The notes beneath the pieces were generated by a model. The model was not told where the DNA came from. It was given only the letters and a program-made list of their open reading frames with translations, and ran no database searches. From contig OZ243938.1 of assembly GCA_965214095.1 (NCBI GenBank), forward strand, positions 5,142,210 to 5,206,209: DNA of 64,000 bases, written 5' to 3'. Position 1 is the first letter of the stretch. Each line of letters starts with the position of its first letter. This stretch comes from Candidatus Poribacteria bacterium. GTDB taxonomy: Bacteria > Poribacteria > WGA-4E > WGA-3G. A program made the translations under genes and the position numbers. This document shows, one piece after another, positions 2,418 through 59,961 of the stretch.

Positions 2418-2440
2418 AATATGCTGATGTTTACATCATT

Positions 2441-2612
2441 CATAGACGTCAATTTAGCGTCCTTCCAAGTACCGGTAGGTTCGGTTTCCTAACCGAACCG
2501 GCTTTGTGCCAAATACCTTCATAGAGGTTCTCGCGTAGGATCCGGTTCGGTTAGGAAACCGAACCTACCGTCCTGGGGAAAACGCCTAATTTACACTAAA
2601 TTGACGCTTATG
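2441..2612. mobile_element. MITE family A (172 bp) with 17-bp TIRs, internal inverted REP pair and 20-bp flanking direct repeat
   Basis: TIRs CATAGACGTCAATTTAG / CTAAATTGACGCTTATG. Direct repeat ATGCTGATGTTTACATCATT at 2421-2440 and 2613-2632. Near-identical copy at 38238-38408. Confidence 0.85.
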
Positions 2613-2631
2613 ATGCTGATGTTTACATCAT

Positions 2632-2734
2632 TATAGTGAATTATAGATATAAGTTGACACTTTCGACCCACGGTAGGCGAGGTTTCCTAACCTCGCCGAT
2701 GCTGAGTGCTCAAGTAATTTCAAAATCTACTATA
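2632..2734. repeat. MITE-like family B (TATAGTGAATTATA...AAATCTACTATA) carrying one GTAG REP hairpin
   Basis: Near-identical copies at 52481-52583 and 55464-55566. Core GTAG-GCGAGGTT-TCCT-AACCTCGC. Confidence 0.8.
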
Positions 2735-23166: not shown

Positions 23167-23396
23167 CATAGATGTCAATTTAGCGTCCTTCCCGTGCCGG
23201 TAGGTTCGGTTTCCTAACCGAACCATGGGCGTCAATTTAGCGTCCTTCCAAGTGCCGGTAGGTTCGGTTTCCTAACCGAACCGGGTTTGCGTCAAACTCT
23301 TTGATAGAGGGTTCCCGCGGCAGATCCGGTTCGGTTTCCTAACCGAACCTACCGGTCTGGGATTATAGCGAAATTCCCCTCAAATTGATGCCTATG
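23167..23396. mobile_element. Nested or rearranged MITE family A (two left ends, one right end)
   Basis: Left TIRs at 23167 and 23224, right TIR ending at 23396. The second left TIR directly follows the 20-bp REP hairpin at 23204-23223. Confidence 0.75.
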
Positions 23397-33581: not shown

Positions 33582-33885
33582 TATAGTAAAAACCAAAATT
33601 ATTTGCATAGTACTGTTCTGTCTACACTAATCTTGTCCGAATGGACACTCCACTACGGTAGGTTCGGTTTCCTAACCGAACCGGCTTTGTGCCAAATACC
33701 TTCATAGAGGTTCTCGCACAGGTTCCGTGCAGTTAGGAAACCGAACCTACCGGCCTGGGAAAACGCCTAATTTACACTAAATTGACGCCTATGGTTCGGT
33801 TTCCTAACCGAACCGGTATTTGTTCAGTCTCATAGATGCGGTTAGGAAACCCCATCTACCGGGGGGTGTGCACGTATTTTACATT
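33582..33885. mobile_element. Composite repeat: family D shell containing an empty family C shell and a left-truncated family A element
   Basis: Family A right TIR ends at 33793 and is followed by GTTCGGTTTCCTAACCGAAC (33794-33813), which duplicates 33662-33681. Confidence 0.72.
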
Positions 33886-38179: not shown

Positions 38180-38501
38180 CTATTGTTCTGTCTATACTAA
38201 TCTTGTCCGTCGGGTAGAGGCACGAAACCCGACATGCCATAGGCGTCAATTTAGCGTCCTTCCAAGTACCGGTAGGTTCGGTTTCCTAACCGAACCGCTT
38301 TGTGCCAAATACCTTCATAGAGGTTCTCGCGTAGGATCCGGTTCGGTTAGGAAACCGAACCTACCGTCCTGGGAAAAACGCCTAATTTACACTAAATTGA
38401 CGCCCATCAGGCACGAAACCCGACATGCAGACATTTATCATCAATAAAGGCGGGGGTCGTGCCACTACCCGATGGACAATGTCCGAGTGGACGCTCCACT
38501 A
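38180..38501. repeat. Family C element interrupted by a family A insertion
   Basis: Removing 38238-38428 restores a sequence colinear with 30468-30598. Confidence 0.82.
38238..38408. mobile_element. MITE family A (171 bp) with 20-bp direct repeat
   Basis: TIRs CATAGGCGTCAATTTAG / CTAAATTGACGCCCATC. Direct repeat AGGCACGAAACCCGACATGC at 38218-38237 and 38409-38428. Confidence 0.88.
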
Positions 38502-59783: not shown

Positions 59784-59829
59784 GTCTTCTAACCTTGCAA
59801 TAGGCATCAATTTAACTGATTTAAAGGGA

Positions 59830-59961
59830 GTAGTGTTCTGTCTACACTAATCTTGTAGGTCGGGTAGAGGCACGAAACCCGACATGCTGCCATTTATCAT
59901 CAATAAAGTCGGGTGTCGTGCCTCTACCCGACCTACAATGTCCGAATGGACACTCCAGTAG
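59830..59961. repeat. MITE-like family C with REP pair
   Basis: Colinear with 30468-30598. Confidence 0.8.

Follow-up and report, generated by a model that had tools for sequence, protein, structure and literature searches.

The length of the target duplication is used as a family-level character of insertion sequences (IS) and depends on how far apart the two active sites lie on the target DNA. The IS4-family fold is a Tn5-like RNase H fold with an insertion domain, and IS231A has the target motif GGG-N5-CCC. Table 1 of the IS4-family survey (PMC2266710) gives 7–13-bp duplications throughout the subgroups, with about one helical turn as the family hallmark; the supplementary IS tables of the survey might list exceptions. 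Passages of the same survey report a slack of plus or minus 1 bp in the duplication length of IS4-family elements, assign the end signature CAT-------AA--TAA and 10–12-bp duplications to the IS231 subgroup, and cite MIC231, the non-autonomous IS231 cassettes of the Bacillus cereus group, short derivatives that are moved in trans. They also give variable-length repeats, from 8 to 514 bp, for IS1634 and IS1549. IS that target REP sequences are known in five families, IS4 among them, according to the relevant section of PMC1525189. We found no paper in the open-access literature that ties the IS4 family to ~20-bp duplications, and none on Poribacteria insertion sequences. Here, we describe a MITE and an IS4-family IS from a Poribacteria genome that are an otherwise ordinary pair with one unusual property: their target duplications are ~20 bp long, about twice the published range for the family.

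The window is a 64,000-bp stretch (C1:5142210-5206209) of a 5.2-Mb assembly with 41% G+C, and two copies of the MITE in it are flanked by perfect 20-bp repeats. Copy 1 (2441–2612, plus strand, 172 bp) has the termini CATAGACGTCAATTTAG ... CTAAATTGACGCTTATG and is flanked on the left (2421–2440) and right (2613–2632) by the 20-mer ATGCTGATGTTTACATCATT. Copy 2 (38238–38408, plus strand, 171 bp) lies within a unit of a second REP family, has a mutated right terminus (…GCCCATC), and is flanked by AGGCACGAAACCCGACATGC at 38218–38237 and 38409–38428. At both copies, the bases immediately beyond the repeats are unequal, so the repeats are exactly 20 bp. These are the two copies of a 171–172-bp element with TIRs and perfect 20-bp direct repeats that the first-pass annotation had described, and its coordinates are exact. 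The termini of the two copies read CATAG(G/A)CGTCAATTTAG … CTAAATTGACGC(C/T)(T/C)AT(G/C); the left terminus of the MITE is CATAGGCGTCAATTTAG and the right one is CATAGGCGTCAATTTAG plus TG, 17–19 nt in all. Allowing up to 3 mismatches, the terminal 16-mer occurs nine times in the window, versus a mean of 0.62 in shuffled sequences, where at least nine occurrences were seen in 0 of 100 shuffles. One further terminus match at 59799–59814 (2 mismatches, AATAGGCATCAATTTA) stands alone, with no partner end; it could be a lone IS end or have arisen by chance. Across the genome, the MITE is 171–173 bp long and without coding capacity. The interior of copy 1 holds two REP hairpin cores (2479–2498 and 2545–2564) in inverted orientation, and doublets of two inverted REP hairpins equivalent to this interior also exist without the termini, as blastn matches that span positions 32–137 only.

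We scanned the genome for the 16-nt terminus with up to 3 mismatches and paired the nearest inward-facing ends. The ends numbered 113 in one orientation and 102 in the opposite one and yielded 59 pairs with two main classes of core-to-core spacing (30 pairs at 160–169 bp and 13 pairs at 1,470–1,479 bp). Flanking repeats were counted as scorable when, after subtracting 3 for each mismatch, their length was 8 or more. The first-pass annotation had proposed such a tabulation of repeat lengths. A perfect 20-bp repeat flanks all 13 pairs of the long class (1,487–1,488 bp), and a single pair of 1,550 bp has no repeat and is probably a chance pair. Among 33 pairs of MITE size, 18 have a 20-bp repeat (11 of them perfect), three a 19-bp repeat, and one a 21-bp repeat, with 11 not scorable. 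The remaining 12 pairs, of other lengths, comprise three with 20 bp, one with 19 bp, and eight with none. Most copies that lack repeats are nested, truncated, or part of an array. A separate 32,066-bp contig of the assembly, C2, has 64% G+C versus 41% for the chromosome and is possibly foreign or mis-binned.

The long class is an autonomous IS: a longer copy with these TIRs around an ORF, as the first-pass annotation had proposed to look for. The 13 copies are 98.3%–100% identical to each other, lie elsewhere on the same chromosome, and have the ends CATAGGCGTCAATTTAAGGA… and …TCACTAAATTGACGCCTATG and a single ORF of 439 aa (one example is the copy at C1:1206256-1207743). The 439-codon frame is open at the expected offset in 11 of the 13 copies, while two copies of 1,487 bp are out of frame. 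Compared with the right-end type of IS terminus, the MITE has 17 nt in common at its left end and 19 nt at its right end, and nothing beyond. The earlier view of the 171–172-bp element as non-autonomous is supported. It is also true, for this element family, that no transposase lies in the window (13/13 IS copies are outside it).

The IS transposase is a member of the IS4 family. It matches Pfam DDE_Tnp_1 (PF01609; 1.9e-22, 80.5 bits, cut-off 23) and the NCBIfam model for IS4 family transposases (NF033592; 9.3e-58, 195.9 bits, cut-off 115), and reaches only 29 bits with the NCBIfam IS1634 model (cut-off 100). A phmmer search against PDB sequences gave no match at E up to 1. We aligned the transposase with nine database homologs that are 48%–90% identical to it, apparently a Poribacteria clade, and three distant sequences. 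D119, D191, R320, E324, and K331 are invariant among these 13 sequences, and D119, D191, and E324 are the catalytic residues. Their spacings of 71 and 132 residues fall inside the D(60-110)D(100-150)E range that PMC2266710 gives, in the part that treats the motif, for the IS4 family. The Y(2)R(3)E(6)K motif is incomplete: its Y position (residue 317, L001:256-1572) is an alanine here and an alanine or valine in most Poribacteria relatives, and the tyrosine is kept in one of them (P0028) and in the short-duplication relatives described below. At the DNA level, the left end of the IS fits the IS231 end signature, and the right end departs from it at position 17. The duplication length lies outside the 7–13 bp of the family, with 20 bp in 13/13 IS copies and 17–21 bp in relatives.

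Orthologous empty sites confirmed that the 20-bp repeats are target-site duplications, as the first-pass annotation had held. For the IS copy at C1:4265783, the alignments of the left and right flanks to same-genus genomes overlap by exactly 20 bp in G005, and by 19 bp in G003 and 13 bp in G001, where the alignment ends are trimmed. For the copy at C1:4200153, the overlap is 20 bp in G005 and 19 bp in G001. In all five orthologous sites, the 20-mer is present once, and both IS copies lie in unique sequence. For a third IS copy (C1:4400707), no flanks could be found in any of five relatives. The empty-site check thus came out for two IS copies but not for the MITE, for which an orthologous empty site was found at none of four copies (window 2441, C1:731401, C1:4860441, and C1:2225222). 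Alignments of MITE flanks to the relatives end 60–100 bp before the insertion site, and a search of 1.5 kb did not recover the right flanks; divergence of the intergenic flanks in the relatives accounts for this. For the MITE, the evidence of duplication therefore comes from paralogous REP units and from the perfect repeats. One such unfilled unit, of the family interrupted by MITE copy 2, lies at 59835–59960 (plus strand) and contains the 20-mer once, at 59868–59887; in a MAFFT alignment, only the right half of this unit aligns well.

To determine the target preference, we compiled a logo of 33 unique sites with a 20-bp repeat and no more than 2 mismatches (13 IS, 18 MITE, and 2 other). G is present at position −1 in 28/33 sites and at position 1 in 31/33, T at position 2 in 28/33, A at position 19 in 25/33, and C at positions 20 and +1 in 29/33 and 27/33, respectively. 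The resulting consensus is G|GT-N16-AC|C. One REP-like palindrome, (CGGTAG)GTKCGGTT-TCCT/AGGA-AACCGMAC(CTACCG), accounts for 22/33 sites, and its core is found in the genome as 219 and 214 20-mers (up to 3 mismatches) in the two loop orientations. When REP-targeted IS copies are read left end first, the REP has the same orientation in 9/10. At eight of the 11 non-REP sites, the best perfect stem is 3–4 bp (none of at least 5 bp), versus a mean of 3.7 in random 40-mers; symmetric complementarity over the 11 sites is 6.5 pairs of 20, slightly higher than the 5.1 (SD 2.0) of random 40-mers. Hence, hairpins are favored but dispensable, and the stagger does not change when one is absent. In the window, the 20-mer duplicated by MITE copy 1 holds a 6-bp stem, and the duplication of copy 2 sits off-center in a REP hairpin of a different family. 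Of the first-pass statement that the element targets hairpins, the strong preference for a palindromic REP-like sequence remains, but eight of 11 non-REP targets lack a stem of at least 5 bp. The stronger wording, a structure-targeting enzyme, is not supported: non-palindromic sites are used and still duplicated by exactly 20 bp.

The genome has other REP-related features. The second REP family (…GTAGGTCGGGTAGAGGCACGAAACCCGAC…) forms inverted doublets in the window at 2859–2974, 38185–38500, and 59835–59960, and it is this family, rather than the GTKCGGTT one, that is the main target of sister IS clades in other Poribacteria (for example, L013 and L029). Five matches to Y1_Tnp (PF01797) lie at C1:81623-81976, 2170036-2170389, 2385609-2385962, 4230081-4230434, and 2666075-2666299; four of them are 141-aa open frames, and as candidate REP-associated tyrosine transposases the five may serve one of the REP families. 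An Rfam search with the long hairpins returned only sub-threshold miRNA-precursor matches, which we took as meaningless.

To place the 20-bp duplication in the family, we collected loci of transposase relatives, fixed their ends at CAT…ATG with the CATAGG terminus as anchor, and determined the repeats on either side. All relatives at 43%–90% identity are in Candidatus Poribacteria MAGs. In a first set of 39 loci, 38 were scored (one had no ends): 10 had 20 bp, 13 had 19 bp, eight had 18 bp, two had 17 bp, and five had no repeat, so that 33/38 carried repeats of 17–21 bp with no more than 2 mismatches. In a second set of 35 loci, 23 had 19–21 bp with no more than 2 mismatches (14 with 19 bp, eight with 20 bp, and one with 21 bp), three had 20 bp with four mismatches in a flipped loop, and nine had no repeat. 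Individual lengths are uncertain by up to 2 bp, because many duplications read G…C beside the …ATG and CAT… ends. Within one genome, the duplication made by one IS type is 20 bp where the REP loop has 4 nt and 19 bp where it has 3 nt (L129-131 versus L133, and L013/20/21/22 versus L014/16), which indicates that the cuts follow the REP arms to within 1 bp. The stagger that the first-pass annotation had called fixed at 20 bp is thus fixed in this genome, but in relatives the loop of the REP decides whether one and the same IS duplicates 19 or 20 bp. At three loci of relatives (L103, L134, and L153), the loop is the sole difference between the two flanking 20-mers: its 4 nt in one are the reverse complement of those in the other. 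Such a pattern points to either recombination of IS copies located in REPs of opposite orientation or inversion of the loop.

Long duplications extend to more distant relatives outside the Poribacteria. A Chloroflexota MAG relative at 37% identity (L171) has a 21-bp duplication, one on pHAU01 of Herpetosiphon aurantiacus DSM 785 (Haur_5171) at 35% has 19–21-bp duplications, and one on a Ca. Chlorohelix plasmid at 34% has the 20-bp duplication GGGTGCTAAAACCAGTGCCC. The relatives at 34%–35% identity, at L173 (CP000876.1 252585-254014) and L174 (NZ_CP128402.1), have ~20-bp repeats that start with GGG and end with CCC; their hosts are cultured or enriched Chloroflexota and could serve as experimentally tractable models. 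Relatives at 25%–30% identity, from Prolixibacteraceae and Clostridiaceae, have similar CATAGCC… ends and repeats of 11, 11, 11, 9, and 7 bp (for example, GGGTTAGACCC); two further distant loci have no repeat, and TIR detection gave no ends for a Bacillus mycoides relative (L175). Overall, transposases at 34%–90% identity go with 17–21-bp duplications and those at 30% or less with 7–11 bp. In a maximum-likelihood tree of 29 transposases, an unrooted tree of hand-chosen rows in which kin share labels, one branch with 100/100 support splits the 24 long- from the 5 short-duplication rows. One conceivable cause of the long stagger, loss of the YREK tyrosine, was rejected: P0028 keeps the tyrosine, and its IS still has a 19-bp repeat (2 mismatches at L009 and perfect at L010 and L011). 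The tyrosine does not track duplication length.

The MITE/IS pair is real: the two elements have common termini, equal duplication lengths, and a common target preference, empty sites exist, and the transposase belongs to the IS4 family. The 171–172-bp element is short, non-coding, and present in many copies, and its genome contains an autonomous element with matching termini and duplication length, as expected of a MITE. It is very probably the MITE of the 1,488-bp IS, mobilized by the IS transposase and directed to targets by the symmetric G|GT-N16-AC|C preference. We infer that the MITE is mobilized in trans by cut-and-paste chemistry, and also how the rearranged copies arose. In the mechanism we propose, the IS provides the transposase in trans, and this enzyme would bind the MITE ends and excise the element; the two 3′ ends would be joined to target strands 20 bp apart, and gap repair would duplicate those 20 bp. 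The target would be picked by a symmetric sequence preference that the abundant REP-like palindrome satisfies best. The first-pass annotation had instead proposed an integrase that it could not name, and had listed Cas1-type casposons and some IS1182, IS1634, and IS30 members as known sources of longer or palindrome-linked duplications. These families are not the relevant ones. The IS that matches the MITE in termini and duplication length, present in 13 copies, encodes an ordinary IS4-family DDE transposase. An integrase unrelated to the IS (Cas1-like, tyrosine, or HUH) that recognizes DNA structure could in principle draw on the five Y1_Tnp proteins, which could act on REP-like hairpins, and on the REP doublet that forms the MITE interior. 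We regard it as very improbable, given that the MITE and IS match over 17–19 nt at their termini and produce the same duplication at the same consensus; moreover, HUH (Y1) and tyrosine recombinases are not known to make target duplications. Still less credible is that the 20-bp repeats do not stem from insertion at all, with the element simply sitting between tandem REP cores that were already there. Such cores are very abundant (219 + 214), and tandem arrays of them occur, but the same-genus orthologs of two IS sites hold a single 20-mer, unique non-REP 20-mers are duplicated too, and at filled REP sites the left repeat keeps only the left arm and the right repeat only the right arm.

A further question is what sets the 20-bp distance. 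We lean, by a small margin of confidence, toward a distinct and so far undescribed IS4 subgroup in which the stagger has roughly doubled relative to IS231-like relatives, from ~11 to 17–21 bp (about one extra helical turn), with the G-rich and C-rich half-sites kept at the cuts. This subgroup would be present in Poribacteria MAGs, a Chloroflexota MAG, Herpetosiphon, and Ca. Chlorohelix, and in Poribacteria it would have specialized on REP palindromes whose arms fix the cuts within 1 bp. The stagger might instead be imposed by the DNA, if the transposase recognized an extruded hairpin or cruciform and cut at fixed places on the stem, the duplication being the span between the arms. The shift from 20 to 19 bp with loop length in relatives and the palindromic nature of 22/33 sites in this genome speak for such a reading. 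Nevertheless, it is unlikely: the non-palindromic GGTATGATTATATAACGCAC is duplicated over exactly 20 bp and has an orthologous empty site; the duplications at the two window copies are also exactly 20 bp; the stems at eight of 11 non-REP sites do not exceed those of random sequence; and slack of plus or minus 1 bp is already on record for the IS4 family (PMC2266710, Table 1 and Fig. 3 legend). A specific cruciform model, in which two cuts meet at a four-way junction, was set aside because non-palindromic sites give the same 20 bp. If the doubled stagger is true, the synaptic or target-capture geometry would be unlike that of Tn5/Tn10-type complexes.

Self-targeting could account for the rearranged copies. 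In the window, a 57-bp partial unit (23167–23223, plus strand), made of the MITE left end and a 20-bp hairpin core, directly precedes a diverged MITE copy (23224–23396, plus strand) that is 80% identical to copy 2, has no clean flanking repeat, and is nested or rearranged. A left-truncated MITE (33656–33793, plus strand) starts exactly at the internal hairpin and ends at the right terminus, which adjoins the preferred target, the REP hairpin core GTTCGGTTTCCTAACCGAAC (33794–33813). Reading the sequence confirmed the earlier observation that the junctions at 23224 and 33793 both adjoin this hairpin. Three mutually identical 58-bp units at C1:2057240-2057412 have the same architecture as the unit at 23167–23223, the 57–58-bp units consisting of the MITE left end (38 nt) and a 20-nt hairpin core; these three also have an unusual CTTATG terminus in common. 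With two target hairpins inside it, the MITE is a target for itself, and this would account for copies that are nested, truncated, or partial and in tandem. Insertion into the hairpin of a resident MITE, followed by recombination between the duplicated 20-mers, would yield both partial units and truncated copies; unequal crossing-over would also explain them. The copy at 33656–33793 could have arisen by recombination of the MITE's left hairpin with a duplicate of the target hairpin.

These elements bear on both mechanism and annotation. A whole IS4-family clade has ~20-bp duplications and is separated from 7–11-bp relatives by one fully supported branch of the 29-transposase tree, so that the two groups can be compared to ask how the stagger of a Tn5-like transposase is set. 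The pair is also a concrete case of an IS and its MITE specializing on a host REP family, a specialization that keeps insertions out of genes and yields nested and tandem repeat arrays. For annotation, a large share of the intergenic repeats in these genomes of sponge-associated-type bacteria (Poribacteria) can be traced to the MITE/IS pair.

Among described systems with long duplications, the IS1202 group (16–28 bp) differs in having an unrelated TnsB-like transposase and TGT…ACA ends, and no target preference was found for its long-duplication members, according to the portion of PMC10132070 on this group. Casposons with Cas1, IS1634, and IS1549 make long duplications too, but no Cas1 is involved here. 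Insertion into REPs at a fixed position, and often in a fixed orientation, is a likeness to ISRm22 (IS4 family), IS1397/ISKpn1, ISPsy8, ISPpu9/10, and ISPa11, as these are presented in sections of PMC1525189; the same sections give these IS duplications of 0–6 bp (ISRm22 6, ISPsy8 3, and ISPpu9/10 2), whereas here the whole inner 20 bp of the palindrome are duplicated. The IS231 subgroup is also similar, with a single-ORF DDE transposase, an end signature that the left end CATAGGCGTCAATTTAAGGA fits, and a symmetric G…C target preference. Relatives in 699 Bacillus plasmid records are ~28% identical to the IS transposase described here, and Bacillus and Clostridium relatives have only 24%–30% identity and 7–11-bp repeats. 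The transposase here is shorter than these relatives, being without a 17-aa insertion and ~30 C-terminal residues, and the Y of its YREK motif is replaced. It duplicates 20 bp where the IS231 subgroup duplicates 10–12 bp.
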